Virus record (IMG/VR): IMGVR_UViG_3300042565_002302 | Location: 1-54,856 of that record | DNA length: 54,856 bases | Strand: one strand, 5' to 3' | Source: a virus | Taxonomy: Duplodnaviria; Caudoviricetes | In this document: positions 1 to 37,734 of the stretch, piece after piece | Layout of the letters: every line of letters begins with the position of its first letter | How positions within the stretch are numbered: the first letter of the stretch is position 1 | Notes under the pieces: generated by a model | What the model was told of the DNA's origin: nothing | The model's database searches: none | What the model saw: the letters and a program-made list of their open reading frames with translations, nothing else | Translations under genes and position numbers: made by a program

Positions 1-887
1 TTTTCACCATTCTTATATGAACCCTTAAACATTAATTGTCCATTATCATAATATTTTTCCCATATACCATCTTTTTCACCATTCTTATATGAACCCTTAT
101 ACCATAATTGTCCATTACTCCAATATTCTTCCCAATAACCATCTCTTAAATTATTCTTATATGAACCCTTAAACCATAATTGTCCATTATAGTGATATTC
201 TTCCCATATACCTTGTTTTTTTCCGGTATTAATATCATACTGATTAATCCTCAACCCATCTACAATGGGTTGATCCTTATTCCATTGAGCCCATCTAGAA
301 TCTTCTCCACTTAATTTACGTGGAATAAAGAGTTTTTTCTTATCTTCATTAATATTTTCAGTTAATTTTTTAATTAATTTTCCATTCTTATATGAACCCT
401 TATAATCTAATTGTCCATTACCAAAATACCTCTCCCATATACCATCTTTTTCACCATTCTTATATGAACCCTTAAACCATAATTGTCCATTACTCCAATA
501 TTCTTCCCAATAACCATCTCTTAAATTATTCTTAAATGAACCCTTATAATCTAATTGTCCATTACTCCAATATTCTTCCCATATACCATCTTTTTCACCA
601 TTCTTATATGAACCCTTAGACCATAATTTTCCATTATCGTGATAATACTCCCAATAACCTTCTTCTTTACCATTCTTATATGAACCCTTAGACCATAATT
701 TTCCATTAAAATGATAAGCCTCCCATATACCTTCTTTATTACCGGTATTAATATTATATTGATTAATTCTTAATCCATCTACGATGGGTTGTTCTTTATT
801 CCAATCAAACCATCTGGAATCTTCTCCACTTAATTTACGTGGAATAAAGAGTTTTTTCTTTTGTTCTTCTGTTATTATAATTTTCAT
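1..887 (-). CDS. MORN-like (YwqK-type) repeat polyprotein, paralog of 4452..9458; 3' end runs off the window (missing from ORF track)
   Basis: ATG at 887; reads MKIIITEEQKKKLFIPRKLSGEDSRW..., 5 repeats of G[IY]WExYxxNG[QK]LxxKGS[YF]KN, then KLTENINEDKKKLFIPR and 3 more repeats with no stop before position 1. Confidence 0.9.
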   Translation of the reverse strand, partial: MKIIITEEQKKKLFIPRKLSGEDSRWFDWNKEQPIVDGLRINQYNINTGNKEGIWEAYHFNGKLWSKGSYKNGKEEGYWEYYHDNGKLWSKGSYKNGEKDGIWEEYWSNGQLDYKGSFKNNLRDGYWEEYWSNGQLWFKGSYKNGEKDGIWERYFGNGQLDYKGSYKNGKLIKKLTENINEDKKKLFIPRKLSGEDSRWAQWNKDQPIVDGLRINQYDINTGKKQGIWEEYHYNGQLWFKGSYKNNLRDGYWEEYWSNGQLWYKGSYKNGEKDGIWEKYYDNGQLMFKGSYKNGE

Positions 888-1573: not shown

Positions 1574-2593
1574 TTACCAATAACCACTTGTACTACCTTT
1601 AACAAGTCCTGATCTATTGAGGCGGCAAGCCCAATATCCAGCCGTCATTCTATCTTTCTTCTTAGCGCAATTGTGTCTTGCGGCAAAACTCTTTCTTGCT
1701 TTAGAATTACCCACTCGTGCTTTTAAACCACCTTTTTTATCACCAAAAGTAATCTTTTTTATATTACCTGTTGATGGGTTTTTAACATATACAACATATT
1801 TCTTACCCGAACCGGTATTTCTTTTAATTTTATTTAATTTAGGGTGTTTCTTTTCTTTCTCCTCAATAATGCTCTCAATTAAACCTTTAGATAAATCAGT
1901 CAAATATTTATTCATTTCATTAGCATAAGTTTTACTTTTAACTGTCCCTGTATAATATTCTGAATTTTCAAAATCAATAAAGTTTTCATAAGCCAAATCA
2001 CCCCAACCTTTTTCTTTAAGATATTTATCAATTTCATCAATATCAATTTCATCTTTTATATTATCATCTTCATATTTACCACCATCGTATTCAATTAAAA
2101 ATACATCTAATGGTACAACTTCACCTCTAAATGTTCCGAATCTTCCTATATCAGTGCTTTCAAATAATTCTTCATCACTACTATCTAATTCAATTGATCC
2201 ACTATCATATAATCTTCTTGTTTCAGATAATAAATCAATATGGGCTTCACTACCTGGTCTATACACACTTTCATTAACAGATATACCATTTATTAAATGA
2301 TATTTTAATCCTTCACTAATTACTTTTTTCATACTTATACTTTCATTTACATCATTATTTCTTAATTCATCCAAATATTTTTCAATACCTTCTCTATCTT
2401 CACGATTAAATACTTTTAATAATTTAACGTTTTTAGTTGATATGGATTTGCGATCCCCACCTTTTTTTATATAAACCAATCTTTCATCCAAGGCGTGTAA
2501 TGGTACGTCTTGATACCTATATTTTTTATTAAAATAAGCCAATGGAATCATTATTTCTATTACAGCTGTTTTATTAGTCATATACATTTTCAT
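1574..2593 (-). CDS. conserved phage multidomain protein with basic C-terminal domain
   Basis: 339-aa ORF; C-terminal KKYVVYVKNP...KKITFGD...RKSFAARHNC...AGYWAC recalled as a conserved phage domain. Confidence 0.6.
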   Translation of the reverse strand: MKMYMTNKTAVIEIMIPLAYFNKKYRYQDVPLHALDERLVYIKKGGDRKSISTKNVKLLKVFNREDREGIEKYLDELRNNDVNESISMKKVISEGLKYHLINGISVNESVYRPGSEAHIDLLSETRRLYDSGSIELDSSDEELFESTDIGRFGTFRGEVVPLDVFLIEYDGGKYEDDNIKDEIDIDEIDKYLKEKGWGDLAYENFIDFENSEYYTGTVKSKTYANEMNKYLTDLSKGLIESIIEEKEKKHPKLNKIKRNTGSGKKYVVYVKNPSTGNIKKITFGDKKGGLKARVGNSKARKSFAARHNCAKKKDRMTAGYWACRLNRSGLVKGSTSGYW

Positions 2594-3962
2594 TATTTAC
2601 ATTCATATTTATTATATAATATTTTTTACCTTTATATGTATAAGTTATTGGTTCTGCTTTAGCGTCAATACAATATGTCGGATAATCTTTTAATAATCTA
2701 TCTAAATCAAAATAACCATCATAGATAAATAACATTCCAGGTAAACCATCAATATTACTATATTTTGGTGGTTGATTACTCGTTCCTTTATATTTATTCT
2801 CATCATAAAACCCAACCGGATCTTCCATAAATTCTTTATTCAAATCATTTAATTCGGATGATTTTTTAATTTCCTCATCGGTAAGATTATCAATATCATA
2901 TTCATAAAAAAATCTAAAACGACTACTATCAATCAACATATCATAAAATAAATCATCCCAAGAAAAATATTTTAAAATATTTTTTTCGCCAACACGTTTA
3001 ATTAAATTATTTGTTTTGGTTTTACTTGAATTTAAAACGTCACTACTATCAATATTCTCTATAATATCATCTATTGTTTCATCATTAACAACAATATATG
3101 CCCCAATAATACTATTAACCCTATTAATTTTTTTACGTAAATAAAATTGTGAGTCTTCAATAGACATAATTTCAGGGAAATAATTTTCACCAAGAGATTT
3201 AGACCAACTACCAAATACTTTAGCCATTAATTTTTTAGGATTATCAATGGTTTTATCTTGTAAATATTTTTTTATACTACTAGCAACTTTTTTTGGGTAT
3301 ATAATATCACCATTATATTCATTATATTCAATTCTATCCGTATCACTAAAACTAACATTTAATCTATTATCTATTGCATCATACCCTTGAACCTTACCAA
3401 AAACATCAACAAATAATGCGGTTTTATAATCATCACCATTACTACTCCTATTTAAGATAAAAAACAAACTACCATTTTCCATATAATTCTCATAAGTGCT
3501 ATCATCTGTCACACACCATTTAGTACCTTTACCATAATAACAAGAAGCTTCTGCTGTTGATGGGTATAATATGACAATACTATCGAATTCATCAACCATA
3601 TCAATATCATTCTTTAATTGTATCTTTCTGTTCGATCTCTGAAAAGCCTTTTCCGTTGCTACGGTAAATGAATCTAAGTCTTTATATGAGTATATATCGG
3701 TAGATAACTCAGCATTCTTAAATCTTTGTGGGTAGGTTTCTAATACAATTAAAGCATTTCCAACCTTACCCCAATATTCGTGATCGAAATTTTTAACATT
3801 CCTTAACCCAAACTCTTCAACAAATCTTTTATATAACCAATGAAGATATTTTTTATTTGGTGAAGGATCATAATCATATAATTCAGATATTAAATCCGAA
3901 ATAAATACATTTTCTTGTAAATTATATTTCTTTAAAAACTTTTCTAAGAATTTTTCTTCCAT
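2574..3962 (-). CDS. PcfJ-like domain protein, paralog of 11392..13179
   Basis: DPSPNKKYLHW and ASCYYGKGTKWCV motifs. Confidence 0.55.
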   Translation of the reverse strand: MEEKFLEKFLKKYNLQENVFISDLISELYDYDPSPNKKYLHWLYKRFVEEFGLRNVKNFDHEYWGKVGNALIVLETYPQRFKNAELSTDIYSYKDLDSFTVATEKAFQRSNRKIQLKNDIDMVDEFDSIVILYPSTAEASCYYGKGTKWCVTDDSTYENYMENGSLFFILNRSSNGDDYKTALFVDVFGKVQGYDAIDNRLNVSFSDTDRIEYNEYNGDIIYPKKVASSIKKYLQDKTIDNPKKLMAKVFGSWSKSLGENYFPEIMSIEDSQFYLRKKINRVNSIIGAYIVVNDETIDDIIENIDSSDVLNSSKTKTNNLIKRVGEKNILKYFSWDDLFYDMLIDSSRFRFFYEYDIDNLTDEEIKKSSELNDLNKEFMEDPVGFYDENKYKGTSNQPPKYSNIDGLPGMLFIYDGYFDLDRLLKDYPTYCIDAKAEPITYTYKGKKYYIINMNVNNENVYD

Positions 3963-4414
3963 TACATATCTTTGATTTCATCAACCAGTTTTTTATTTAA
4001 TCCAACTTTCTTAGATGTTTTTTCATCCAACCAATATACATCAGCATATTTACCACCTTTAGGGTGCTTTAAATAAGGTCCAATTTCAAACTTACCACCT
4101 TCAAGTTTTCTTTTACCCCAATCATTAATAAGGCTTTTAGCTTCATTGTGAATCTCATTCTCCAATTCTTTATTTTCATCATCTTTAGCACCTTGTTTAC
4201 CTTTAAATCTTATAGATAACACCGCACCTGATGGATCACCCAATTCAATACTTACATGTTCTCCGTGTCTTTTTGATAAATCTTTAAAGTCATTATAAAG
4301 ATCTTTAATATGTGATTTTAATTTATCAAATGTCATTTCATTAAATGCCCATCCTTCCATCATTAATTCATTTGCCAACCTATCAATTTGGCTTTCTGTT
4401 AATCTTATTTTCAT
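3962..4414 (-). CDS. hypothetical protein with MKIRLTESQ leader (putative internal virion protein)
   Basis: 150-aa ORF coupled to the next gene; TATTTATA upstream. Confidence 0.6.
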   Translation of the reverse strand: MKIRLTESQIDRLANELMMEGWAFNEMTFDKLKSHIKDLYNDFKDLSKRHGEHVSIELGDPSGAVLSIRFKGKQGAKDDENKELENEIHNEAKSLINDWGKRKLEGGKFEIGPYLKHPKGGKYADVYWLDEKTSKKVGLNKKLVDEIKDM

Positions 4415-4451
4415 ATTTTTTATATTTGTTTTTTTATTTTATATAAATAGT

Positions 4452-7400
4452 TTATTTGTTTTTAAAGTGAGTTAACATTGCATAAACACCAGCGCTTTTT
4501 AAAATTGTCATAAATGCATCCATAAAATCAACATTTCCTAATAAACTATTTATAATATCCGAATAACCTGGCATTAAAGATGTAAACGCCACAATTGATA
4601 ACATCTCATTTTTGAAACCCTTTAATGATTTATTTTGTCTAAAATAAACAACAATCATAGCAATCGCTAAGTTTGTAATTTCAAAAGCATTTAATGGTTG
4701 AACTGCATACTCTTTAATTAAAGAACTAATATTTCTAATAAGTGCATTTATACCAGAACCAAATGAAGTTAAAAATCCTACATCTAATCCAATATTCTTT
4801 TTAAATTTTTTTAATATATCATCTACATTATCACTTATTTTACTCTCATTTAAACCTGTATACTCACTTTGTTTATATAATTCTTCAAATTTATCCCTAA
4901 CTTTTTTACTTCTCAATGGTATGGTTAAATCAAAATACATATGACCTAAAGGAGCATCTTCACCTATATCCCAACTTAAATTACTTAATATTCTATTTTT
5001 TAAATCATTAAAAACGTTTTCTTTTTCAGATAATTTCCCATCTTCCAAGTAATAATCATCGGAAAATACATCCCAATATATATTAAATAAGTTTGTTGTA
5101 TCACCACCATCCATATCACCTTCACCCCATCTGCCAGTCATATCACCAGTAGTTAAATCGTATTGATTTATTTTTTTACCATCAATAGTAGGTTGCATTT
5201 CATTCCACTCCTTTTTTCTTTCGTCAATTCTTTTTGGTGTGAATAATTTATTTTTTGATCGCTCAGATTCAGTTAACGGTATTCTTTTAACTAACTCACC
5301 ATTCTTATATAAACCCTTATACATTAATTGTCCATTATCAAAATACCATTCCCATATACCATCTCTTTCACCATTATTAAATGAACCCTTAAACCATAAT
5401 TTTCCATTATCAAAATATTTTTCCCAATAACCATCTCTTAAACCATTATTAAATGAACCCTTATAATCTAATTGTCCATTAAAATAATACCTCTCCCAAT
5501 AACCTTCTTTCTTACCATTATTAAATGAACCCTTATAATCTAATTGTCCATTATAGTGATATTCTTCCCAATAACCTTCTTTTTCTCCATTCTTATATGA
5601 ACCCTTAGACCGTAATTTTCCATCAGTATAATAATACCTCTCCCATATACCATCTTTTTCACCATTCTTATATGAACCCTTATAATCTAATTGTCCATTA
5701 AAATAATACCTCTCCCAATAACCTTCTTCTTTACCATTCTTATATGAACCCTTAGACCATAATTTTCCATTAAAATGATAAGCCTCCCATATACCTTCTT
5801 CTTTACCATTCTTATATGAACCCTTATACTCTAATTTTCCATTAGAATGATATCCTTCCCAATAACCTTCTTCTTTACCAGTATTAATATCATACTGATT
5901 AATACGTTCTCCATCTACGATGGGTTGATCCTTATTCCAATTAGCCCACCTGGAATCTTCTCCACTTAATTTACGAGGAATAAACAATTTCTTTTTTGGT
6001 TGTTCAGATTCGAAGATTTTATCATAAAATCTTTTAATTAATTCTCCATTCTTATATGAACACTTATACGCTAATTGTCCATTATCATAATAATACCATT
6101 TACATATGCCATCCTTTAAACCATTCTTATATGAACCCTTATACATTAATTGTCCATTACTCCAATATTCTTCCCAATAACCTTCTTTTTCTCCATTCTT
6201 ATATGAACCCTTAGACCATAATTTTCCATTATAGTGATATTCTTCCCAATAACCTTCTTTTTCTCCATTATTAAATGAACCCTTAAACCATAATTTTCCA
6301 TCAGTATAATAATATTCCCAATAACCTTCTTTTTCTCCATTCTTATATGAACCCTTATACTCTAATTTTCCATCCGAATAATATTCTTCCCAATAACCAT
6401 CTTTTTTACCGGTGTTAATATCATATTGATTAATTCTTAATCCATCTACGATGGGTTGTTCTTTATTCCATTGAGCCCATCTAGAATCTTCTCCACTTAA
6501 TTTACGAGGAATAAAGAGTTTTTTCTTTTCAGATTCATCTAATCTTTTAATTAATCCTCCATTCTTATATGAACCCTTATACCTTAATTGTCCATTACTC
6601 CAATATTCTTCCCATATACCATCTTTTTCTCCATTATTAAATGAACCCTTATAATCTAATTGTCCATTAGAATAATACCATTCCCATATACCATCTCTGT
6701 CACCATTCTTATATGAACCCTTATACCTTAATTTTCCATTACTCCAATACTCTTCCCAATAACCTTCTTCTTTACCATTCTTATATGAACCCTTAAAATC
6801 TAATTGTCCATTATAATGATAATATTCCCAATAACCATCTTTTTCACCATTCTTAAATGAACCCTTATAATATAATTGTCCATTATCATAATATTCCTCC
6901 CATATACCTTCTTTTTCTCCATTATTATATGAACCCTTATAATCTAATTGTCCATTATCAAAATACCATTCCCATATACCTTCTTTATTACCGGTATTAA
7001 TATCATATTGATTAATTCTTATACCATCTTTAATTGGTTGATCCTTATTCCAATCAGCCCATCTGGAATCTTCACCAGATATTTTACGAGGAATAAAGAG
7101 TTTTTTCTTTTCAGATTCATCTAATCTTTTAATTAATCCTCCATTCTTATATGAACCCTTATACATTAATTGTCCATTACTCCAATATTCTTCCCAATAA
7201 CCTTCTTTTTCTCCATTATTAAATGAACCCTTATACGCTAATTTTCCATTATAGTGATATTCTTCCCAATAACCATCTCTTAAACCATTCTTATATGAAC
7301 CCTTATAATCTAATTGTCCATTATCATAATATTCTTCCCAATAACCTTCTTTTTCTCCATTCTTATATGAACCCTTAGACCATAATTTTCCATTATCATA

Positions 7401-9458
7401 ATATTTTTCCCATATACCATCTCTATCACCATTCTTATATGAACCCTTAGACCATAATTTTCCATTATCGTGATAATACTCCCAATAACCTTCTTTTTCT
7501 CCATTCTTATATGAACCCTTATACTCTAATTTTCCATTATCATAATACCATTCCCATATACCTTCTTTCTTACCAGTATTAATATTATATTGATTAATTC
7601 TTAATCCATCTACGATGGGTTGATCCTTATTCCAATCAGACCATCTAGAATCTTCTCCACTTAATTTACGAGGAATAAAGAGTTTTTTCTTTTCAGATTC
7701 ATCTAATGTTTCAATGGTATATTCTTTATCGGTTGTTTCAAGTCCCAATTCATATATCTTATCCATTAAACCGCTTCTTCTCATAGTTTTAAAAACAAGA
7801 TTTTCAGTTGCCATCTCACCACCTTTATCCAAACCAGCTTTTCTATATTTCTTTATCTTATCTTTTATCATATCCAAAGCTTTTCTGGTTTCTTCATACT
7901 TACCATCTTTATATAATTCAACAATTCTATTATATTCACTTTCAAATTGTTTTACCTTCTTTTTAATGGTTTCCCTATCAATCTTAACGTCCTGTGGTTT
8001 TGGTTTTTTAATCCATTCATCATTCATTACAGAATATATACCAGTGCTTTCATGTGGTTCATCTTTATCCTGAGCATATAATTCAACATCATAACCTTTG
8101 ATTTTAATATCGTGATTGTCATTCCACACAGCTTTCTTAGCGTCAAAATATTTCTTGATTAATTCCTTATCATCAAACTTATTGAAGTCTATAAGAACAT
8201 GTAAATCCACGTCTGAATATTGACTCCAATTATAATTAGCTAAAGAACCTGTGAATATAATATCCTCAATAGGTGCTTCAACTTCCAATGTTTTATGAAA
8301 CTCCTGACCGATAGCAACTAATGTGTCTTTTATCTTCTTTTTTAATTTATCATCTTCATCCCACACTTTAGGGTTTAATTCCTTTTGTGGTTCAAATGAT
8401 TTTAATATCTCATCCTTGTTTTCTATTTGTTCATTTATATTCATATCAATAGGGATTAATTTTTTTCCAACATATTCAAATATCTGTTTAATTTTCACAT
8501 CCTTACCATTTATTATATTCACCTCTTTTTCGTGAGGATTTCCTTTTATATCAACACCCTCAATAGTAATACTATTTGGTTCTACATAACCCTCAATAAC
8601 AATTACCTTCTGTTTGTTTTTACCATAATATTGTTGGTTAATTTCAGCAACATCAATTACATTATTACGTGACGTTGTCCAATGATTACCCATATCTTTT
8701 AGATTAACCTCAGATAAATTATCTATAAATAAAACCCTATAAATATTACCACCATTTTCAATTAAATCCTCCACTTCCGATTCATACAACTCTAATTCCC
8801 AATTAGCCGTATTATCTGAACCATAATAATTGATCCAAGATTTTAATATCTCATCCTTGTTTTCCATTTGTTCTTTTATTATCATATTATCATAATCATC
8901 TTTCCAATCCATACTTTCCCTTACACTACCATCCTTATCATAAACGATATATGCGATTTTCTTAGCCATTTTATATATATCTTTACGTCTAATATCACCA
9001 TATTCAAAATATTCAATAGATAACCCATCGGGCTTACCATCAATATAATTTACAATTTTTTCCAATTGATTATTAAATGAGTAATACCATTTCCATATAC
9101 CATATTTTTTACCATCATCAAAACTACCAATTTCCCCTAAACTACCATTCATGTAATACATTTTCCATAAACCAGTAAACTCATTATTTTTTGTCTGACC
9201 ATCAAATTGGATTTTACCGTTTAAATAGAATGTTTGGTGTATCCCTTCGTACTCACCATCTTTATACCCTATTTTATACAATATTCTACCATTATTATCA
9301 TACATAATCCATAAACCATCTTTTCTACCGGTATTTACGTTATATTGATTAATACGTTCCCCATCAACTATCGGTTGTTCTTTATTCCATTGAGCCCATC
9401 TATTATCCTCACCAGATATATTACGAGGAATAAATAATTTCTTTTTTGCATCACCCAT
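4452..9458 (-). CDS. 1668-aa modular polyprotein: MORN-like module, ART-like domain, Pol-beta nucleotidyltransferase, four further MORN-like modules, C-terminal hydrophobic domain
   Basis: Repeated KKKLFIPR headers; 24-aa repeats; TGSLANYNWSQYSDVDLH NTase signature; IYR...HWTTS...EKEV ART-like motifs. Confidence 0.88.
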   Translation of the reverse strand: MGDAKKKLFIPRNISGEDNRWAQWNKEQPIVDGERINQYNVNTGRKDGLWIMYDNNGRILYKIGYKDGEYEGIHQTFYLNGKIQFDGQTKNNEFTGLWKMYYMNGSLGEIGSFDDGKKYGIWKWYYSFNNQLEKIVNYIDGKPDGLSIEYFEYGDIRRKDIYKMAKKIAYIVYDKDGSVRESMDWKDDYDNMIIKEQMENKDEILKSWINYYGSDNTANWELELYESEVEDLIENGGNIYRVLFIDNLSEVNLKDMGNHWTTSRNNVIDVAEINQQYYGKNKQKVIVIEGYVEPNSITIEGVDIKGNPHEKEVNIINGKDVKIKQIFEYVGKKLIPIDMNINEQIENKDEILKSFEPQKELNPKVWDEDDKLKKKIKDTLVAIGQEFHKTLEVEAPIEDIIFTGSLANYNWSQYSDVDLHVLIDFNKFDDKELIKKYFDAKKAVWNDNHDIKIKGYDVELYAQDKDEPHESTGIYSVMNDEWIKKPKPQDVKIDRETIKKKVKQFESEYNRIVELYKDGKYEETRKALDMIKDKIKKYRKAGLDKGGEMATENLVFKTMRRSGLMDKIYELGLETTDKEYTIETLDESEKKKLFIPRKLSGEDSRWSDWNKDQPIVDGLRINQYNINTGKKEGIWEWYYDNGKLEYKGSYKNGEKEGYWEYYHDNGKLWSKGSYKNGDRDGIWEKYYDNGKLWSKGSYKNGEKEGYWEEYYDNGQLDYKGSYKNGLRDGYWEEYHYNGKLAYKGSFNNGEKEGYWEEYWSNGQLMYKGSYKNGGLIKRLDESEKKKLFIPRKISGEDSRWADWNKDQPIKDGIRINQYDINTGNKEGIWEWYFDNGQLDYKGSYNNGEKEGIWEEYYDNGQLYYKGSFKNGEKDGYWEYYHYNGQLDFKGSYKNGKEEGYWEEYWSNGKLRYKGSYKNGDRDGIWEWYYSNGQLDYKGSFNNGEKDGIWEEYWSNGQLRYKGSYKNGGLIKRLDESEKKKLFIPRKLSGEDSRWAQWNKEQPIVDGLRINQYDINTGKKDGYWEEYYSDGKLEYKGSYKNGEKEGYWEYYYTDGKLWFKGSFNNGEKEGYWEEYHYNGKLWSKGSYKNGEKEGYWEEYWSNGQLMYKGSYKNGLKDGICKWYYYDNGQLAYKCSYKNGELIKRFYDKIFESEQPKKKLFIPRKLSGEDSRWANWNKDQPIVDGERINQYDINTGKEEGYWEGYHSNGKLEYKGSYKNGKEEGIWEAYHFNGKLWSKGSYKNGKEEGYWERYYFNGQLDYKGSYKNGEKDGIWERYYYTDGKLRSKGSYKNGEKEGYWEEYHYNGQLDYKGSFNNGKKEGYWERYYFNGQLDYKGSFNNGLRDGYWEKYFDNGKLWFKGSFNNGERDGIWEWYFDNGQLMYKGLYKNGELVKRIPLTESERSKNKLFTPKRIDERKKEWNEMQPTIDGKKINQYDLTTGDMTGRWGEGDMDGGDTTNLFNIYWDVFSDDYYLEDGKLSEKENVFNDLKNRILSNLSWDIGEDAPLGHMYFDLTIPLRSKKVRDKFEELYKQSEYTGLNESKISDNVDDILKKFKKNIGLDVGFLTSFGSGINALIRNISSLIKEYAVQPLNAFEITNLAIAMIVVYFRQNKSLKGFKNEMLSIVAFTSLMPGYSDIINSLLGNVDFMDAFMTILKSAGVYAMLTHFKNK
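5271..7700 (-). repeat. nested tandem repeats: 72-bp MORN units (6+6+5+8) within four header-delimited modules, two of them exactly 582 bp
   Basis: atgaaccctt recurs about every 72 bp; ESE junction codons begin (minus strand) at 7700, 7118, 6536, 6011, 5270. Confidence 0.95.
8398..8873. repeat. 35-bp direct repeat (8398-8432 and 8839-8873, 1 mismatch) flanking the ART-like domain
   Basis: gattttaatatctcatccttgttttc(t/c)atttgttc, encoding EQ(I/M)ENKDEILKS. Confidence 0.9.
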
Positions 9459-9464
9459 ATAATG

Positions 9465-9472
9465 TATAAATA
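9465..9472 (-). promoter_or_regulatory. putative late promoter TATTTATA upstream of the polyprotein gene
   Basis: Same octamer lies just upstream of many structural or leader-bearing genes. Confidence 0.55.
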
Positions 9473-9520
9473 TATTAAAAATGTATTTATTTTATAGTTT
9501 AAGTTGAATATATTTCCACT

Positions 9521-10348
9521 ATGAGCACAATTAGTTATTTCGGAAGTAAAAGTAAGATAGGTTCTTTCATTGAACCATTTTATCCAAAAAATATTAAAAC
9601 ATACGTAGAGCCATTTTCAGGGACTTTCCAATGTTATTTTCATATGGACTTAGAAAAGTATCCAAACTTAGAAAAAGTCGTTTATAATGACTTAAATAAG
9701 TATATTGTTAACCTATTTAAATGTAATAAACAATATAAAGAATTTTATGAATACGTTAAAGATATACCATCACAAGATCCAGAATTATTTAAACAATACC
9801 ACACAAAGTTATTCGGAGGTAATCACTATGATACTTTTGAAATGGGGGATTTTGATACTGCTACTGCTTATTCTTATGTGATGTGCCAAATTTTCTCAGG
9901 AACTAACCCTGAAAAAGCTAAGTTTGTAGATCTTAAAGGAAAATATACTTGTAAGTTCGATTCATTCAAGAATAAATTAATAAAGCAAAAAATGAATTCA
10001 CATATTGATAGAATTACCGATATTGAAATGATGGACTTCGCTGAACTTATTAAAAAATATGATACACCTGAAACATTATTTTATTTAGATCCACCATATA
10101 AAGGTAGAGAGTTTCAATACTTTAAAGGTGATGGTAATTTCGGTGATTTAGGTCATCAAAGAGTGGCTGATGTCCTTAAAGATATCAAAGGAAAATTTGT
10201 TTTATCTTATTACCATTTTGATGAATTAGATAAATGGTTTCCAAGAGATATTTATAAATGGGAATTTAAGGAATTTAATAAACCATCAGGCGCCTCAAAA
10301 GGTAAAACACAATCAAAGGCGCAAGAACTTTTAATTATGAACTACTAG
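9521..10348 (+). CDS. D12-class (Dam-like) N6-adenine DNA methyltransferase
   Basis: YFGSKSK, YVEPFSG, VYNDL, FYLDPPY, QELLIMNY motifs. Confidence 0.9.
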   Translation: MSTISYFGSKSKIGSFIEPFYPKNIKTYVEPFSGTFQCYFHMDLEKYPNLEKVVYNDLNKYIVNLFKCNKQYKEFYEYVKDIPSQDPELFKQYHTKLFGGNHYDTFEMGDFDTATAYSYVMCQIFSGTNPEKAKFVDLKGKYTCKFDSFKNKLIKQKMNSHIDRITDIEMMDFAELIKKYDTPETLFYLDPPYKGREFQYFKGDGNFGDLGHQRVADVLKDIKGKFVLSYYHFDELDKWFPRDIYKWEFKEFNKPSGASKGKTQSKAQELLIMNY

Positions 10349-10349
10349 T

Positions 10350-10598
10350 ATGAAAAAAAAAGAATACAACTTTATTAAAATTGAAAGACCTAAGTTTGAG
10401 GAAAAACCATCTCAAATAATGTTAGATATTAAATCAATTGAATCTGAAATTGAGTTGGAGGAAAAGAGAATAGTTAATTCTAAACAAGAATTAATTAAGG
10501 AGTTAAAAAAAATAAAAAAAAATCAAATCCCTGTTATCCCAAATAAAATAACATTGTGGATGAAAATAAAGTTTTTATTTACCGGTAAATGGCATTAA
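10350..10598 (+). CDS. hypothetical protein
   Basis: ORF tightly coupled to neighbours. Confidence 0.6.
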   Translation: MKKKEYNFIKIERPKFEEKPSQIMLDIKSIESEIELEEKRIVNSKQELIKELKKIKKNQIPVIPNKITLWMKIKFLFTGKWH

Positions 10599-11395
10599 AA
10601 AAACTTACAAAACAACAGCGTTATTATAGAAAAAATAAAGCTAAATACAGAAAGTGGAGAAGAAAACGAGTTAAACGTCTAGTCGAAAGCGGTGAAATGG
10701 CTAAGATTAATAAACTCAAAAAAAAAATACGCAATAAGAAAAAAGAAAACAAAAAAAGAAATAAAAGAAAAATAGAAAGAAAGAAAAACGCAATCTATTT
10801 TATAGCCACAATTAGGGGTAATAAACCATTTAAAATTTTTAATAGGTATGTCGATTATTCTTGGGCATCTAAAAAATGGGATACCATTTTAGAAGAACAA
10901 AAAAACTTATTTTATCCAGGTCTTAAATACCCCTTAATGTTTCTTTATAAAGTAGAACCAGGTGAAGAAAATACAATTACGCAAAGAAATAGTATAGGTA
11001 AAATTATTGAAACCAAAATACCTGGTTATAAAATCATATTTCAAGATATATTTTACAATGAAATTAAGATATATTTTAAAAACAAATCTGTTAGAGTTCC
11101 TGCTTATTTCCTTATTCAACTATTAGATATGAATAGTAATATTAAACAAGTATTTCTTATTAAAAATAAAATATGTATTGAGGATGAAGGTAAATACTTT
11201 TTATTCGTCTGCAATGATAAAAATGAAGCATCTTCTATTAAAAATAGATTAAGAGAAAAATATATGGAAACAGGTAAAACTAATGTTCTTTTCTTTAACG
11301 ATGTAAATACAATATCAATGAAAGAAGAAATCTACGATAATATAGTTAAACAAGGTATATGCGATTTAAAATATTTAAATAGGAGTGACAATTAA
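10589..11395 (+). CDS. hypothetical protein with highly basic N-terminus
   Basis: 268-aa ORF, K/R-rich first 70 aa. Confidence 0.65.
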   Translation: MALKKLTKQQRYYRKNKAKYRKWRRKRVKRLVESGEMAKINKLKKKIRNKKKENKKRNKRKIERKKNAIYFIATIRGNKPFKIFNRYVDYSWASKKWDTILEEQKNLFYPGLKYPLMFLYKVEPGEENTITQRNSIGKIIETKIPGYKIIFQDIFYNEIKIYFKNKSVRVPAYFLIQLLDMNSNIKQVFLIKNKICIEDEGKYFLFVCNDKNEASSIKNRLREKYMETGKTNVLFFNDVNTISMKEEIYDNIVKQGICDLKYLNRSDN

Positions 11396-13179
11396 TTATC
11401 ATCAAAAAGTTTGTAATTATACAATAAACTATAAAATTCATCAATATTGTTTAAAATGTATTTACTAAAACCATTTTTACTTTTTAATGTAACAGATATC
11501 GTTAAATCATCCATATCAATAGTATTTACCCTAAAATAAAAATCTTTGTTTCTTGGTAATTCGTACCATCGTTCAAGTTGATAATTTTTATTTATTTCAT
11601 TAAATATTTCTATATACTTGTTGAAGTTTTCATTTTCTTCGATATCATCTTTAATCTTTTCCAAGTTCCAATTCACTTCACGTTGAAACCTTTCTTCATC
11701 AAAAGCATCCCAATCAATCATTTCATATGAATTGTCCATCCAACCACCAATATTATCATCTTCAGTTATAGTCTTTAATAATGAATTAATTGTATTTTTT
11801 TTGGGTTGGTATTCGTCAAATAACTTAATTAGATTATTAACAGTTGTTTTATACATATAATAACAACTTTCACCTGATTTTTCAATACCATATTTTTCAA
11901 AATAATTACATAATTCTTCTTCAATAGTCTGTTTAGCACCTTCCTCAGCAGCTCTATTCATCTCTGTTTGGTAATCACTAATTATATTACTAATCCACCT
12001 ATCAAACATATCAGCTAAAGTTTTAGAAACAATAGTTCTTACCTCATCGTCACTAAAATCAGCATTAACATACTGAGGTAAAATGAATTTAAGTATTTCC
12101 CTTAATAATTTAATATTTTCATCATTAAATCTATCTACTATATAACCTTCATCCCATTCCGAATCAATATCCATAGGATAAAAATCATAATCATTATAAT
12201 AACGACTATCAATAATACTTAATAAGTAGTCATCACCATCAGATAAATCAAATAATTTTTTATAGTTATCTAACCCATCAAAATCAAACTTTATTACGGA
12301 TTTACCCCTATCTTTTTCATTCATAATAAATTTTGTAATATTATCAGAACCAATAATTTGATTTGAGTTTTCTTTACCATTGATAAAAGCCTTTAATAGA
12401 CTAACAATAGGTAATTGTTCGGTTAGTTCATTTATTAGGTTAGTTAACTCCGGAAATTCGTCATATAAAAAACCAATTCCTTTTTCAATATCAGCTGAAT
12501 TATATACGTATTTTTTTAGTTTACCACCATCTTTTTCCATATATAAAGCAGCCTTATCCCTAGGATAACGCTTATCAATAAAATAATATAAAATACCGTT
12601 ACTTGAATATTTTATAAAATTAGTTTCGCTTTCAGTTGATGATGTACACCATTTAGTTTCTTTACCGTAATAACAAGAAGCATCATATGTTAAAGGTCTA
12701 ACAACTAAAAAATTACTATCTTCAAATACTTTATCCACACCTTTTTTAGCTATTCTTTCTTTTTCAAACCTTGTTTTATTTTCTTCTAATATTTGTAACA
12801 TAGCGAGAAGATAAAAAGGTATCACATAAGCATTAATATCTTTTGGGTTTTTTGTTATTTTGTCAATATCAATAATATTTTGACCTTCAAATTTAACACC
12901 AGTTTCAATGAGTCTATTTACAAATTGATTTACAATATCATCATTAATTCTTTTATAATTTTTTTCAAAAGGAATGACAATTCTATTTATCATCTCTTCA
13001 ATCTTATCATAATCCTTAAACTTTAAAGAAGAGTCTAAATACTTACCAATCCACTCAGAATATTTACCTTGTGATGTTGGATCAACAGTAAACATCCTAT
13101 CAATGAATTCACCATCGGTAGGATATTTATTTTTTACTTTTTCAATTATTTCCTTTTTACCCTCTAATAAAACATTCAT
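11392..13179 (-). CDS. PcfJ-like domain protein with acidic C-terminal region
   Basis: DPTSQGKYSEW, PKDINAY, ASCYYGKETKWCTS, LYYFIDK. Confidence 0.6.
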   Translation of the reverse strand: MNVLLEGKKEIIEKVKNKYPTDGEFIDRMFTVDPTSQGKYSEWIGKYLDSSLKFKDYDKIEEMINRIVIPFEKNYKRINDDIVNQFVNRLIETGVKFEGQNIIDIDKITKNPKDINAYVIPFYLLAMLQILEENKTRFEKERIAKKGVDKVFEDSNFLVVRPLTYDASCYYGKETKWCTSSTESETNFIKYSSNGILYYFIDKRYPRDKAALYMEKDGGKLKKYVYNSADIEKGIGFLYDEFPELTNLINELTEQLPIVSLLKAFINGKENSNQIIGSDNITKFIMNEKDRGKSVIKFDFDGLDNYKKLFDLSDGDDYLLSIIDSRYYNDYDFYPMDIDSEWDEGYIVDRFNDENIKLLREILKFILPQYVNADFSDDEVRTIVSKTLADMFDRWISNIISDYQTEMNRAAEEGAKQTIEEELCNYFEKYGIEKSGESCYYMYKTTVNNLIKLFDEYQPKKNTINSLLKTITEDDNIGGWMDNSYEMIDWDAFDEERFQREVNWNLEKIKDDIEENENFNKYIEIFNEINKNYQLERWYELPRNKDFYFRVNTIDMDDLTISVTLKSKNGFSKYILNNIDEFYSLLYNYKLFDDN

Positions 13180-13365
13180 TTAATTTAATCTTTTACTTTC
13201 TTTATAAGCGGCTTTTTTAATTTCTTCTCTTCTCTTAACACATTCTTTGGTAAATGCTTGTTTTTCTCTAAGTTCTTTAACAACACCTGTTTTATCAAAC
13301 TTCCATTTAAACTTTTTTAAGGCTCTATCTAACCCACCTTCTTTTTTTATATCCACTATTATCAT
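13180..13365 (-). CDS. rpsU: phage-encoded ribosomal protein bS21
   Basis: LDRALKKFKWKFDKTGVVKELREKQAFTK..VKRREE, Bacteroidota-like bS21. Confidence 0.9.
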   Translation of the reverse strand: MIIVDIKKEGGLDRALKKFKWKFDKTGVVKELREKQAFTKECVKRREEIKKAAYKESKRLN

Positions 13366-13366
13366 A

Positions 13367-13741
13367 TTATTTCATCAATAAAGCACCTATAATTATTCCA
13401 GGTAATATTCCATAACCAAAATATAACGCCTTTCTCATTACACCCATAGTTTTATAGTCATTTATTATACCTTTATAGTTTTCTTCATTTTCTTTAAACT
13501 TACCAATAACAATACTATCACTAGCCATTATTATACTATCCTTTGTAATAACATCTTTATAATCCATTATTACTGAATCCTGTTGTTTAATAATTTCTGT
13601 CTTAGTCGAATCTTGATACTTTAATTGTTTAATATTATGAGCAATATTAATTAACTCAACTCTGGTAAAACAAGTATCTATTTTTTGTGAAAAAACATTT
13701 ATCGTAATAAATGTAAATAATAATACTAATAATTTTCTCAT
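13367..13741 (-). CDS. secreted coiled-coil protein with C-terminal hydrophobic segment (spanin-like candidate)
   Basis: Signal peptide ...VFS|Q; C-terminal ALYFGYGILPGIIIGALL; overlaps 13738 ORF by 4 nt. Confidence 0.5.
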   Translation of the reverse strand: MRKLLVLLFTFITINVFSQKIDTCFTRVELINIAHNIKQLKYQDSTKTEIIKQQDSVIMDYKDVITKDSIIMASDSIVIGKFKENEENYKGIINDYKTMGVMRKALYFGYGILPGIIIGALLMK

Positions 13742-14052
13742 TTAGCAAAATCGTGTAAGAAGTTTATTGCGTTATGAATGTTTGTATCTTTCGGTAATGG
13801 CTTTTTCAAACTCTCTTTTTGTTGATTAATTACAGTTGTTCTTTTATCAATATTGTTTATAACTTGAGCTCTTTGATGCTTAATTGAATCAACAACCATT
13901 AATATTGAATCAATTTGGTTTGAATTGGATTCAATCTTATCTAATTTATCTTGAATGGATTTTGTTTTATCATCCATAATGTAATTCATAACTATGAAAA
14001 TACCTATTAATATAATAATAAATTTAATTATTTCCGTTACTATTTCTTTCAT
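13738..14052 (-). CDS. membrane-anchored coiled-coil protein (i-spanin-like candidate)
   Basis: N-terminal TM FIIILIGIFIVM followed by heptads. Confidence 0.5.
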   Translation of the reverse strand: MKEIVTEIIKFIIILIGIFIVMNYIMDDKTKSIQDKLDKIESNSNQIDSILMVVDSIKHQRAQVINNIDKRTTVINQQKESLKKPLPKDTNIHNAINFLHDFAK

Positions 14053-14055
14053 ATC

Positions 14056-14439
14056 TTACCCTTTAGCTATTTTATCAATTGAAGCGATTAAATACTTTTG
14101 CATTAAATCAATTGATTTATATTTTAGTTCAATTATTTCATTCGTATTATCAACAGCCTTTTTTAATTTTTCAGCTTTATCATCAGTAATTATAAAAGCA
14201 TCAACCCTATACGTATTAGTTTTATATTTTTTTAATTCAGTAGTATTAACAACTTTTTCAAATTTTGATATATATTTCGAATCCCTAGATAAAATCCATA
14301 GACCCAATCCTTGTGATTCTAATTTCTGAAAATAAATATTATTAATACTATTAATATCTTTACCATAATCACGCTCTTCATCATGTATAATTATCATTTC
14401 TCGCGATTCTCTTAATACTTGTTTAATTAATTCTTTCAT
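14056..14439 (-). CDS. hypothetical protein with MKELIKQVLRES leader
   Basis: 127-aa coupled ORF. Confidence 0.6.
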   Translation of the reverse strand: MKELIKQVLRESREMIIIHDEERDYGKDINSINNIYFQKLESQGLGLWILSRDSKYISKFEKVVNTTELKKYKTNTYRVDAFIITDDKAEKLKKAVDNTNEIIELKYKSIDLMQKYLIASIDKIAKG

Positions 14440-14966
14440 ATTCTACGTTCCTCCTTTTTACCGGTTTTTTTTCTTCTTTCAATTCTTCTATCCGATAATA
14501 TTCCACCCCAAGTTGAAACCCATTCTTTATAGTTTTGTTTTAGTTTTGTAATTAATTCAACGGTTTCATCTGTTAATTGTAACATATTTGCTGATATATA
14601 ACAACCACTTTGATCATCCAATGAATATACCCACTCAATGTTTTCTTGAGTTAATTCCCCAACCCACTCAATGTTACCTGAAGATATATTTAATATCTTA
14701 AACTCAACTAAGTCAGTAACGTTATTAATAAACCCCTCCATTGAAGTTTTAAAAGCTTCTTTTTCATTATCCGCAAACTCTAATTCAGTAGCGTCTATAC
14801 CTGAAACTTGAACCATAGCCCCATCAATCAAAAACTTTCTAAATTGTTCTTCAGGTTTTTTTAATACTTCTTCATCCTTTTTAAATGTAATTTCTTCTCT
14901 CTCACCTTGCTCTACTAATCTTATCCTTTTAAGAATTGATTTAGTAATATCGTGTTTTGTTTTCAT
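14436..14966 (-). CDS. hypothetical acidic protein (putative head-associated)
   Basis: Start likely ATG 14966, downstream of TATTTATG; ILKRIRLVEQ leader. Confidence 0.6.
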   Translation of the reverse strand: MKTKHDITKSILKRIRLVEQGEREEITFKKDEEVLKKPEEQFRKFLIDGAMVQVSGIDATELEFADNEKEAFKTSMEGFINNVTDLVEFKILNISSGNIEWVGELTQENIEWVYSLDDQSGCYISANMLQLTDETVELITKLKQNYKEWVSTWGGILSDRRIERRKKTGKKEERRI

Positions 14967-14982
14967 ATACATAAATAGATTA

Positions 14983-15558
14983 TTATTTATTTTTTATCTT
15001 ATTTTTAATCTTAGAAAAATCAAATGCGGGACTTAAATCCGTATATTCTTCATAATAATTACTTCTACATAATATACCTTTTACAATCGTAGCATCTAAT
15101 AACTTCGTATTATGTCCAACAGTATTCCTTGATATGGTGTATTTTGCACACAACCCGTCAATTAAATCTTTAAGTGATTTAGTTTGTTGATCACTATATT
15201 TAGCCCAATAACTATATCCACGCCACTCTTGCTCATAAACATCACCCTTATATTGCTCACCAATCCAATTATAGAAATACTTTTTTTTCTTTATTAACCA
15301 ACCATCATTCTCTAAAAAAATCGTTATTGTTTTTTCATAAGGAACAACAAATGAATAATTGTCAGCCATAAAATGGTTATATATATTACCTTCCCTATCT
15401 ATCGTATAATTAGGTATTTTGATACTTTTCCTCAATTTAATACCACTCAAATAATCTTTAATACCTCTTGACGTATGTCCTAAGACAATTTGTTCTTTAT
15501 TATTAGGTATCAAAGAATAATTACTTTCCAATGTTTTATATTCATAATTTATATTCAT
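14983..15558 (-). CDS. N-acetylmuramoyl-L-alanine amidase-like protein (endolysin candidate)
   Basis: QIVLGHT, YTIDREGNIY, IFLEN, YSDQQTKSL, TDLSPAFDF amidase_2 pattern; some Zn ligands look substituted. Confidence 0.7.
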   Translation of the reverse strand: MNINYEYKTLESNYSLIPNNKEQIVLGHTSRGIKDYLSGIKLRKSIKIPNYTIDREGNIYNHFMADNYSFVVPYEKTITIFLENDGWLIKKKKYFYNWIGEQYKGDVYEQEWRGYSYWAKYSDQQTKSLKDLIDGLCAKYTISRNTVGHNTKLLDATIVKGILCRSNYYEEYTDLSPAFDFSKIKNKIKNK

Positions 15559-15595
15559 AATTCATATTATAAATATAATTCTATATAAAATAAAG

Positions 15596-15624
15596 CAAAA
15601 AAAATGGTGGATAACCCACCATTT
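15596..15624 (-). terminator. intrinsic terminator
   Basis: aaatggtgg-ataac-ccaccattt hairpin with adjacent A-run (U-tract on the minus strand) after 15637 ORF. Confidence 0.7.
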
Positions 15625-15636
15625 ATTAACCACTAA

Positions 15637-16224
15637 CTATTCCCACCAACATCTAATATCTCTATTTAATAATTTGAATAACAAGTCTTGAGCTCTTTTT
15701 TCATTATAATGACCAAGATTCATAGCTAATCTCTGTTTGTAATTATCATCGTTTAATTCAAATACTTGTAATTCTTTATTGGACAATACTTTTCTAACAG
15801 CGGCTTTATGTTTAGCAAAATAATCATCATAGTTTTCTGATACTTCTTCAATTTCAAGTTGTTTATAATCAGGCTTATCTTCAATATCTAACCAATTATA
15901 ATTTGATTCATGATAATCCATATACTCGCTTGAATAAAACTCATCTTGTATTTTTTCAATCAAACGAAGACACCACATCATTCTTTCAGAATCATACTTC
16001 GCTCGTGTATGAAAATCTCTATTACCTATATATTGAGACTGATGTTTCAATTTAGTTTTAAGGATTTCCCATATAAAATGATCATCCCAATCTCTATCTT
16101 TCCAGATAACAGGAAACCATCGGATTAAGTTTTTAATTGATCGATACATATTTTTAATATTCCAACCAATGTTATCCCATAACCAATTAGTAATTTTTTT
16201 AATTAAAGTTTCTTTATTATCCAT
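15637..16224 (-). CDS. hypothetical protein
   Basis: NLIRWFPVIWKDRDWD; start taken at ATG 16224. Confidence 0.65.
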   Translation of the reverse strand: MDNKETLIKKITNWLWDNIGWNIKNMYRSIKNLIRWFPVIWKDRDWDDHFIWEILKTKLKHQSQYIGNRDFHTRAKYDSERMMWCLRLIEKIQDEFYSSEYMDYHESNYNWLDIEDKPDYKQLEIEEVSENYDDYFAKHKAAVRKVLSNKELQVFELNDDNYKQRLAMNLGHYNEKRAQDLLFKLLNRDIRCWWE

Positions 16225-16556
16225 TACACTACTTTTTGATACCATCCTTTTTTAGATAGTTTAACTAATAAAACCTTATCTTCATTCGTTAAAGAATTAC
16301 GATTTTCGTAAATATTATTACAAATTTTAAACAATTCTTGTTCAGTTGTGGTACCAACCACCACTTCATCACCATCAATCATATCTTCAATACCTAAATC
16401 TTCTTTAAGAAGATTAAATAAATCCTTTTTCTCGGATTTATTTAGTGAGTAGATAATATCATTGATATCACCATCCACATTTAATGACACATAACCCATA
16501 TATTTATATTTTTTAATTATTTTATTACCTGAAATATCATTTCTATTAATGTCCAT
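16224..16556 (-). CDS. hypothetical protein
   Basis: ORF between co-oriented genes; start uncertain. Confidence 0.5.
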   Translation of the reverse strand: MDINRNDISGNKIIKKYKYMGYVSLNVDGDINDIIYSLNKSEKKDLFNLLKEDLGIEDMIDGDEVVVGTTTEQELFKICNNIYENRNSLTNEDKVLLVKLSKKGWYQKVV

Positions 16557-16596
16557 ATCATCACAATTAACGCAATGATACGGACTATTTGCTTTT

Positions 16597-27533: not shown

Positions 27534-27535
27534 TT

Positions 27536-28029: not shown

Positions 28030-28065
28030 AATACAAATATAGTAAAAAAAATAAAATAAAACAAA

Positions 28066-37254: not shown

Positions 37255-37734
37255 TTATATGGTTTTAGAAAAACTAACAACTTTTCTATTTTGATGTGTA
37301 AAAATAAAATCCATTTTAATACTATCAACCACACTATCAACTTCAATCTCTAAATCATTTATAACAAGATCTTTGGGATTGTGTTGAGATATTAAATAAT
37401 TTAAATAACTAGATATAGTATGGGAGTAATCTATCAAATCAGGATATTTAACATTATAATATAGTATTTTATTATCCAAATCTTCACCATTACTAATAAT
37501 AATTTTACCTTCATATCTAATAGCATTATCAATATCAGCATAATCTAAATCATATTCCCACAATTCATCTACTTTAATAATATATTTTAATGATTTAATA
37601 TTATTTTTAGTTAAAAAATTATTACTAGCATCTTTAACCATTTTTCCAAATTCAACAGATCTCTCGTCAATGTTTCTTGGGATGAAAAGTTTCTTTTTTT
37701 CTTCTCTTAATATTTTTTTAATAATATCTTTCAC
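37255..37734 (-). CDS. hypothetical protein with leader and KKKLFIPR header
   Basis: GTG start; MKDIIKKILREEKKKLFIPRNIDER. Confidence 0.65.
   Translation of the reverse strand: MKDIIKKILREEKKKLFIPRNIDERSVEFGKMVKDASNNFLTKNNIKSLKYIIKVDELWEYDLDYADIDNAIRYEGKIIISNGEDLDNKILYYNVKYPDLIDYSHTISSYLNYLISQHNPKDLVINDLEIEVDSVVDSIKMDFIFTHQNRKVVSFSKTI

Follow-up and report, generated by a model that had tools for sequence, protein, structure and literature searches.

A probable polyvalent effector polyprotein, built of units joined at (I/L)-x-E sites, in an uncultured T4-like jumbo phage

The uncultured virus record IMGVR_UViG_3300042565_002302 of IMG/VR, 54,856 bases long and without end repeats, was analysed over its whole length (hereafter the window), with attention centred on an uninterrupted open reading frame (ORF) at 4452-9458 on the minus strand that encodes a protein of 1668 amino acids (aa). 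CheckV places the completeness of the record at 17%, and the window is therefore a fragment of a phage genome of about 300 kb. Its G+C content is 25-31%, and its genes include those for ribosomal protein S21, a sigma factor, a ClpB/ClpA-type double AAA+ protein, RNA-repair enzymes and two DNA methylases; large proteins of no assigned family form a block that ends beside a gp25-type baseplate wedge gene. The 1668-residue protein, called the polyprotein here, consists of nine units of five kinds on one phage-encoded chain, laid out from its N-terminus as listed below, where ART stands for ADP-ribosyltransferase and pLDDT for the predicted local distance difference test score of a structural model.

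4452..9458, minus strand: modular polyprotein gene (P0001), 1668 aa, about 198 kDa
8871..9458, minus strand: Module 1, residues 1-196, N-terminal leader MGDAKKKLFIPR and degenerate MORN_2 array, ending in IKE196
8430..8870, minus strand: ART-fold domain, residues 197-343, with R241, W260-T-T-S263 and E310-x-E312 conserved, ending in INE343
7698..8429, minus strand: pol-beta-type nucleotidyltransferase (NTase), residues 344-587, with G404-S405, D416-x-D418 and E459, ending in LDE587
7116..7697, minus strand: Module 2, residues 588-781, SEKKKLFIPRK leader and MORN_2 array, ending in LDE781
6534..7115, minus strand: Module 3, residues 782-975, leader and MORN_2 array, ending in LDE975
6009..6533, minus strand: Module 4, residues 976-1150, leader and MORN_2 array, ending in IFE1150
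5268..6008, minus strand: Module 5, residues 1151-1397, leader and MORN_2 array of nine beta-hairpins (pLDDT above 90), ending in LTE1397
4845..5267, minus strand: Module 6, residues 1398-1538, variant leader KNKLFTPKRIDER and an acidic domain with GRWGEGD, modelled at low confidence, ending in LNE1538
4455..4844, minus strand: C-terminal domain, residues 1539-1668, basic, amphipathic and predicted helical

The MORN units are repeats of one another, each opening with KKKLFIPR, and the match of the chain to MORN_2 (PF07661) is strong (6.8e-101, 318.6 bits against a cut-off of 29.6, 15 repeats). At E <= 0.01 the only Pfam families found in the polyprotein are MORN_2, NTP_transf_2 and MTPAP-like; Pfam detects in it neither a zincin-like MPTase nor any further peptidase of its own, and no fusion to MuF or to a portal.

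The preliminary description of this stretch, made from its sequence, had called the second unit ART-like, and the structural model bears this out. The 147-residue piece was modelled as a single compact domain (mean pLDDT 94.7), and its homologues, which form 85 clusters among 1.84 billion representatives, align to its residues 3-147. Sixty-one of these clusters are proteins of at most 260 residues, and the rest carry the domain inside very large proteins. An alignment of 52 sequences revealed residues G40, G41, R45, G61, W64, E114 and E116 to be invariant or nearly so (R45, W64, E114 and E116 at 90% or above), giving the pattern YR ... HWT ... ExE, which the polyprotein carries as R241, T261-T262-S263 and E310-K-E312. 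The domain matches no Pfam ART model and no PDB sequence, and the search for cultured relatives found no match to it among phage records. When the model was compared with known structures by Foldseek, the best rows were nearly all R-S-E ARTs, including the A1 chains of cholera and heat-labile toxins, pertussis S1, Plt and pierisin, although the matches are weak (best E 2.6e-3, template modelling score 0.40-0.46). VIA-align returned Z values from 6.4 to 4.3, led by PltC (6.4, root-mean-square deviation 3.4 over 100 residues) and including cholera toxin (5.6), with residues 39-145 of the model aligned to residues 1-144 of cholera toxin A1; these Z values are middling and by themselves could reflect a common arrangement. 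We accept the ART fold because the list of structural matches is consistent and the triad is conserved. The domain is thus taken to have an ART fold with a likely active site, and from the aligned ranges we infer which of its residues are equivalent to the catalytic residues of the toxins. Six of the 20 homologues scanned lie in proteins that also carry ART-PolyVal, LPD38, LPD23 or RadC with topoisomerase I, and 13 have no Pfam family; ART-PolyVal, LPD38, LPD23 and RadC with topoisomerase are hallmarks of polyvalent proteins. The domain itself may already be named in the supplementary domain lists of the paper that defined that class (PMC5512222).

The NTase assignment is also borne out, by the intact G404-S405 and D416-x-D418 motifs and by free-standing phage proteins that match the module. 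Those NTases, of about 250 residues and encoded by related jumbo phages, align to residues 344-587 of the polyprotein from first to last residue, and G404-S405, D416-V-D418 and E459 are invariant in six sequences. The module also occurs as a separate gene in Lak megaphages, Maribacter phages and Synechococcus phages, and it is the only one of the modules searched for cultured relatives to have any matches, all in these three groups. Family-level similarity is slight, with 20 bits to Pfam NTP_transf_2 against a cut-off of 21 and, among PDB sequences, only weak matches to the DrrA AMP-transferase domain (E 0.03-0.05). As a separate observation, in the more distant jumbo-phage relatives (loci L096-L099, records G003-G006) the free-standing NTase gene adjoins an Hsp70/DnaK-like gene and lies 7-10 kb from the portal and protease genes.

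Conservation of the C-terminal domain begins at about residue 1536, and its copies share 74-77% identity. Its amphipathic stretches reach a hydropathy of up to 1.5, which is under the level typical of membrane helices. A homologue search with this domain returned five short fragments only and no free-standing relatives, and a protein atlas held no usable match. In a model of residues 1151-1668 built on an alignment of six sequences, the MORN array scores above 90 in pLDDT, the first 13 leader residues and the LTE/SE joint (the slash marks the putative cut, here and below) score below 50, and the two C-terminal domains are not confidently placed, the last one being predicted helical.

Every border named above ends in (I/L)-x-E. 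The joints at the eight proposed borders are IKE/Q (E196), INE/Q (E343), LDE/SE (E587, E781 and E975), IFE/SE (E1150), LTE/SE (E1397) and LNE/S (E1538), all of them as originally claimed, and the borders themselves are supported by independent domain criteria. When these eight sites are set aside, 11.9% of positions in the chain carry an [IL]xE within the 10 residues upstream. Given this background rate, the probability that four independent joint classes would all carry the motif by chance is about 2e-4, where the three LDE/SE joints were scored as one event because they are recent duplicates. Forty distinct joint contexts were compiled, in which P3 is L (30) or I (10), P2 is T, D, K, N, E, F or S, P1' is mostly S (32) and P4 frequently P. 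The alignment of joints was anchored on the motif, which by itself fixes P3 and P1. The pattern agrees with L/I-X-E, the rule described for the T4 prohead protease gp21 (PMC9026906); in T4, processing is blocked when Asp takes the place of the P1 Glu (PMC9026906).

A search of 5.8 billion proteins identified 14 close relatives of the polyprotein (935-1256 residues, 47-83% identity), on contigs of up to 220 kb; the other matches are cellular TPR+MORN_2 proteins, found through the repeats alone. A further record of IMG/VR, G002 (98,485 bases), is syntenic with the window and encodes an ortholog of 735 aa without the ART domain and four of the MORN units. The family counts that follow cover 16 proteins. 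An [IL]xE lies 2-7 residues upstream of all 59 internal KLFIPR leaders, 14 N-terminal leaders having been set aside. It likewise precedes the ART-like domain in 8/8 cases, the C-terminal domain in 14/14, often as two sites in tandem (for example LTESNNINEG), and the NTase in 13/14, the remaining one having an ITE 19 residues upstream. The 16 proteins display 13 module orders, all of which break at joints: the C-terminal domain is terminal in 14, the GRWGEGD unit sits at the N-terminus of some proteins and close to the C-terminus of others, MORN units differ in number, and the ART-like unit is present in eight and absent from eight, its gain or loss falling between two copies of the same EQxExKDxILKS linker. 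The preliminary description had pointed to module gain, loss and reshuffling among relatives as informative; these changes fall exactly at the joints, and no swaps that ignore the junctions were seen. Scans for further loci added little: a metagenome scan for loci of the relatives gave four, none both new and long, viral locus scans gave three loci and one locus, and the search for cultured relatives found no match among phage records for a 709-aa structural protein.

One further record (G001, locus L003) was considered as an ortholog and rejected, as it is a different phage with tandem small MORN genes. At 9328-18136 of that locus lie about 20 tandem genes of 82-174 aa, each a separate MORN_2 array without a KLFIPR leader, and these are a split-gene counterpart of the fused arrays in the polyprotein. 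G001 also holds a homologue of the ART-like domain in a 535-aa frame (L160).

The KKKLFIPR leader, a short N-terminal peptide that ends in the joint motif, or both occur beyond the polyprotein in the following genes of the window and of G002.

3..887, minus strand: partial paralog that runs off the window, with MKIIITEEQ, KKKLFIPRK and MORN, a joint LTENINED, then a second leader and MORN
3962..4414, minus strand: 150-aa downstream neighbour of the polyprotein gene, start MKIRLTESQ (LTE at residues 5-7), with TATTTATA at -35
37255..37734, minus strand: 159-aa protein MKDIIKKILRE/EKKKLFIPRNIDER, just upstream of the tail/baseplate block
Window 37255-37734 and 3-887; G002 8499-8975, 8978-9451, 23018-23410, 30520-31389 and 67296-68333: leader-bearing proteins other than the polyprotein

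In the protein at 37255-37734, the polyprotein-type leader KKKLFIPRNIDER follows, after one further E, an 11-residue N-terminal peptide ending in ILRE (MKDIIKKILRE/E-KKKLFIPRNIDER). The paralog at 3-887 and a second one, P0014, open with M(K/R)IIITE/EQ-KKKLFIPR, and several proteins of G002 carry the leader after a peptide or helix that ends in [IL]xE. In all cases seen the leader either opens the protein or follows an [IL]xE by a few residues. The same tendency is shown by free-standing ART-like homologues: among 59 of them, at most 50% identical to one another, 40 have an [IL]xE within the first 12 residues, compared with 27 of 118 G002 proteins. By analogy, these N-terminal peptides resemble the 10-residue capsid targeting sequence described for T4 (PMC9026906). 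Across the window proteome the N-terminal excess is modest (10/61 against an internal rate of 10%). A family of lysozyme paralogs (P0014 and G002 3298-5610, plus strand) combines the leader and MORN units with a hydrophobic segment and, at the C-terminus, a Phage_lysozyme domain (PF00959, 1.8e-22), and has a weak match to phrog_2083, a family named 'internal virion lysozyme' (1.4e-5). The leader, in the form KK(G)KLFIPR[KR], was also observed on small non-MORN proteins, several of which start with a helix of the type MKxIKLTEQDLTNIVKRVI.

An AT-only octamer lies immediately upstream of the polyprotein gene.

9465..9472, minus strand: TATTTATA, lying 6 nt ahead of the ATG, a candidate late-type promoter or start element

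The octamer TATTTATA is not over-represented in the window overall (26 copies, compared with 28.7 +/- 5.9 in shuffled sequence), and 10 of the 26 copies fall in the 60 nt upstream of genes, which make up 3.3% of the sequence, the top share of any AT-only 8-mer. It precedes 9 of the 61 genes of the window, two of them in the tail/baseplate block, usually 12-17 nt before the start codon. Its position is -12 to -14 for the polyprotein gene and, in G002, -14 for the ortholog and -12 for the T4-type portal gene; among 15 G002 genes examined it occurs at -12 to -14 in seven (the ortholog, two MORN paralogs, a small leader-bearing gene, the portal gene, a structural-block gene and a 377-residue gene) and at -32 in an eighth, and is missing from seven, including the large terminase gene. 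The element is reminiscent of the late promoter of T4, a single element of the -10 type. Its presence near the start of the polyprotein gene, of tail/baseplate genes and of the G002 portal gene upholds the earlier observation that the motif is common to structural genes, and these positions make it likely that the polyprotein gene is co-regulated with head genes.

Taken together, these features very probably make the chain a polyvalent effector polyprotein, encoded by an uncultured jumbo phage of the T4-like kind. Polyvalent proteins, as defined by Iyer et al. 2017 (PMC5512222), are multi-domain proteins (2-15 domains) of phages and conjugative elements for which packaging in the virion, injection and processing are predicted. 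The polyprotein has in common with them that many unrelated effector domains, ART and NTase types among them, lie on one phage-encoded chain, and that relatives of its ART-like domain occur together with ART-PolyVal, LPD38 and LPD23. It differs in that a built-in MPTase, frequent though not universal in the class, was not found in it, in that its cutting would depend on a head protease acting at fixed joints, and in that it consists mostly of MORN_2, a repeat whose name 'MORN' occurs 0 times in the main text of that paper (PMC5512222). The proposal of a candidate new system was accordingly too strong: proteins of the polyvalent kind have been published already, and relatives of the ART-like domain sit in them.

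How such a chain might be used is suggested by analogy with T4, and we hold the following model of head loading and cutting at the joints tentatively, as slightly less likely than not. The late-expressed chain would be loaded into the prohead, where the phage's gp21-type head protease (Peptidase_S77) would cut after the Glu of each joint to yield about nine proteins. The predicted new N-termini are Q197, Q344, S588, S782, S976, S1151, S1398 and S1539, and the predicted starts of released units include SEKKKLFIPR, SEQPKKKLFIPR, SERSKNKLF, SKISDN, QMENKD and QIENKD. The released products would enter the host with the DNA; the two enzymes would then modify host targets, for takeover or counter-defence, and the MORN arrays would serve as binders. 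Once released, each MORN unit would start 2-7 residues ahead of KKKLFIPR, which suggests that the leader works as an N-terminal signal. It is a rather doubtful extension of this model that in T4-like jumbo phages the head-maturation protease acts as a general 'unpacking' enzyme for polyvalent cargo. Each released MORN or acidic unit would then open with the leader, which would be a new kind of N-terminal signal, serving to keep proteins in the head, to let them leave through the tail or to target them in the host; the leader likewise comes after putatively cleavable peptides at the N-termini of five or more further small proteins of the lineage. With its units freely reshuffled at the joints, the locus would on this view be a cartridge of binders and enzymes that evolves fast.

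The lineage probably has a head of the T4 type. G002 encodes a Portal_T4 protein (2.6e-67) and a large terminase, and portals 52-59% identical to that of G002 are common in IMG/VR. A Peptidase_S77 gene of the gp21 type lies two genes after the portal gene in 5/5 relatives with portals 54-58% identical, which include one complete genome with terminal repeats (321 kb) and one that is 93% complete. Near its start, at residues 4-8, the protease of four of these relatives has LLE, VLE or ILE, and both gp23-type capsid proteins examined in the relatives have INE/A at residues 58-60; in T4, gp21 contains LIE-9 and gp23 has a 65-residue propeptide (PMC9026906). Because the starts of the relatives' proteases and the gp23 INE/A sites parallel those of T4, an L/I-X-E specificity is plausible, from these sequences, for the protease of this group of jumbo phages.

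Several results weigh against delivery through the head. The preliminary description had suggested looking for a gp21-type protease elsewhere in the genome, and none was found: S77 (PF03420) is present in 0/12 lineage records, namely the window, G002 and ten further records (G012-G021) chosen because they carry the leader or a close portal, all of them fragments that are 5-30% complete. Local tblastn and hidden Markov model searches with the proteases of the five relatives returned nothing significant (best E 0.04-0.05). At G002 12397-13494, the order of portal, 247-aa, 143-aa and protease genes conserved in the relatives (L091-L095) breaks after the 247-aa gene, so that the portal slot of G002 is without both the 143-aa gene and the protease that all five relatives keep, and the KLFIPR leader occurs in 0 of 80 viral loci around related proteases. 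The records with free-standing ART-like genes lack S77 and Portal_T4 in 4/4 cases (14-37% complete), and the free-standing NTases of the relatives begin directly with the domain, without a cleavable peptide. The polyprotein itself starts with its leader and has no N-terminal targeting peptide ahead of it, and its gene lies outside any head-gene cluster, its neighbours being a DNA methylase gene, paralogous unknowns and the S21 gene. The [IL]xE motif is short and common, with 28 sites in the polyprotein against 20.5 expected by composition, 10 of them GIWE within MORN repeats, and many joints are recent duplicates in related proteins, so that the counts are not independent events. The exposed joint in the model of residues 1151-1668 would fit a protease site and is weak evidence for one, its low pLDDT depending on the alignment of six sequences. 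The head-cargo proposal stands in part: the modular anatomy, the joints, the module changes at them, the ART and NTase domains, the TATTTATA element shared with structural genes and the probable T4-type head of the lineage (Portal_T4 in G002, S77 in the relatives) speak for it, and the protease was not found in the 12 fragments of the lineage.

Two candidates for the enzyme were rejected. The low-GC protease contig L188 belongs to another phage; its portal is 62% identical to that of G002. An M42-like peptidase near the G002 portal gene is not a substitute, because relatives with S77 carry an M42-like peptidase as well.

Three other explanations were weighed against head loading and cutting. 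It is possible, though on balance unlikely, that the chain stays uncut as a polyvalent or scaffold protein, a multivalent MORN platform carrying the ART and NTase domains, whose joints are a conserved flexible linker; a linker copied with each unit would promote unequal recombination and so explain why breakpoints fall at joints. Near-identical leader codons recur across five units, so that the linkers repeat as DNA as well as protein, and the ART unit stands between its two linker copies as homologous recombination would yield. Some proteins of the polyvalent type are delivered unprocessed, such as the virion RNA polymerase of phage N4 (PMC5512222), and the failure to find the protease in the lineage fragments is also as expected for an uncut chain. 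A linker need not, however, hold L/I at P3 and E at P1 in four unrelated joint classes while P2 and the 2-7-residue spacer vary; the free order of modules suits a fixed scaffold poorly; and short peptides at the N-termini of paralogs and of free-standing ART-like proteins end in the joint motif as well.

The explanation that the polyprotein acts outside the capsid is improbable. It would then be a late cytoplasmic or envelope protein, cut if at all by another protease, that functions in lysis, superinfection exclusion or cell remodelling, its MORN arrays binding the cell envelope and its amphipathic C-terminal domain the membrane. The lysozyme paralogs, with a hydrophobic segment and Phage_lysozyme behind leader and MORN units, are in keeping with such a role, as are the MORN repeats reported in phage endolysins (PMC9238414), the amphipathic C-terminal domain, and the presence of a ClpB/ClpA-type unfoldase in the window and of the M42-like peptidase in G002. 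Against this, the hydropathy of the C-terminal domain falls short of a typical membrane helix, the weak 'internal virion lysozyme' match of the paralog suits virion delivery equally well, the M42-like peptidase co-exists with S77 in relatives and does not replace it, and the ART-fold and NTase effectors of polyvalent proteins are predicted to act on entry (PMC5512222). Pure chance, by which the motif at the borders would be an accident of duplication and of an AT-driven composition rich in I, L, E and K, is extremely improbable. The mild overall excess of sites and the fact that three of the eight joints are identical duplicates agree with it, but it is opposed by the four independent joint classes and by the retention of the motif in proteins down to 47% identity.

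Head loading and cutting at the joints, the use we tentatively favour, has partial parallels in several known systems. With Alt and IPI-III of T4 it has in common a probable T4-type head, the L/I-X-E motif, an ART, which in T4 is carried in the head and injected, and the short N-terminal peptides ending in the motif on paralogs and free-standing homologues; a capsid targeting sequence has been proposed to let T4-like phages load varied proteins (PMC9026906). The T4 protease, however, trims short terminal propeptides of single proteins, whereas the polyprotein would give rise to about nine mature proteins, and the polyprotein has no N-terminal targeting peptide, its leader lying after the cut rather than before it. 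The phages phiKZ, 201phi2-1 and SPN3US are also jumbo phages with many head-packaged, ejected proteins that gp175/gp245 cut after Glu in a three-residue motif with redundant sites (PMC9026906, PMC10052503), although the motif there is S/A-X-E and the lineage is a different one. In SPN3US all identified cuts yield N-terminal propeptides, except for self-cleavage of the protease (PMC10052503), and the proteases of T4, SPN3US and phiKZ are described as trimming propeptides or destroying the scaffold (PMC9026906, PMC10052503). The release of about nine mature proteins from a single chain would be a novel use of such an enzyme. The Dar proteins of phage P1 (DarA, DdrB, Hdf) are likewise head-packaged, in this case for anti-restriction, and some are processed before packaging (PMC5512222), but they are encoded by separate genes, have unrelated domains and lack repeated joints. 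MORN_2 proteins of Bacteroidota (YwqK-type) share the repeat type, the cellular TPR+MORN_2 matches coming from Flavobacteriia and relatives, but have no KKKLFIPR leader, joints or enzymes and are 25-33% identical over the repeats only. The polyproteins of picornaviruses and retroviruses follow the logic proposed for the chain, in which a single translation product is cut at short, fixed motifs on its domain borders by a protease associated with the virion; there is no homology, and the products here would be accessory cargo and not replication or capsid proteins.

Polyprotein processing is known mainly from RNA viruses and retroviruses. If the model is correct, large T4-like phages would also use it routinely, as a means of loading many effectors from a single gene, the joints would provide a sequence mark for spotting injected effectors in uncultured phages (ARTs, NTases and binders directed at host takeover or at defence), and the KKKLFIPR leader would offer a handle on the retention of proteins in the phage head or their exit from it. 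The finding connects two bodies of work that had not been joined, on polyvalent proteins and on T4 capsid targeting with gp21 processing. A literature search that covered few subscription journals found no report of protease-jointed cargo chains or of MORN arrays in virions.

Several other genes of the window and of G002 deserve mention. A multi-copy family of paralogs (phrog_17056/28193, with one weak PcfJ-like match) flanks the polyprotein genes in both records.

Window 2574-3962 and 11392-13179; G002 1181-2173, 5613-7472, 7495-8478, 9683-10462 and 33907-35085: members of the phrog_17056/28193 paralog family
13180-13365, minus strand: ribosomal protein S21 gene (PF01165, 1.1e-12), kept in the syntenic G002 at 43674-43859

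At 889-1287 on the minus strand the window encodes a 132-aa protein that starts with MKIIITKKQ and has no Pfam match, in which a stretch ILDGQHRV resembles, by its sequence, a ParB/sulfiredoxin-type motif. The RNA-repair set at 28463-31376, also on the minus strand, comprises a T4 Rnl1-type RNA ligase, a tRNA nucleotidyltransferase (PolyA_pol head domain) and a P-loop kinase of the polynucleotide kinase type. In G002, gp23 is represented by short fragment ORFs only: two ORFs at 93159-95174 on the minus strand match residues 368-422 and 546-606 of the gp23-type capsid protein of a relative and flank a 395-aa transposase-like gene (phrog_506, 5.9e-128), and could be a disrupted or fragmentary copy of the capsid gene. 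A gene at G002 27518-28693, minus strand (L007:8518-9693), matches the Druantia defence protein DruA (PF14236, 6.1e-13).

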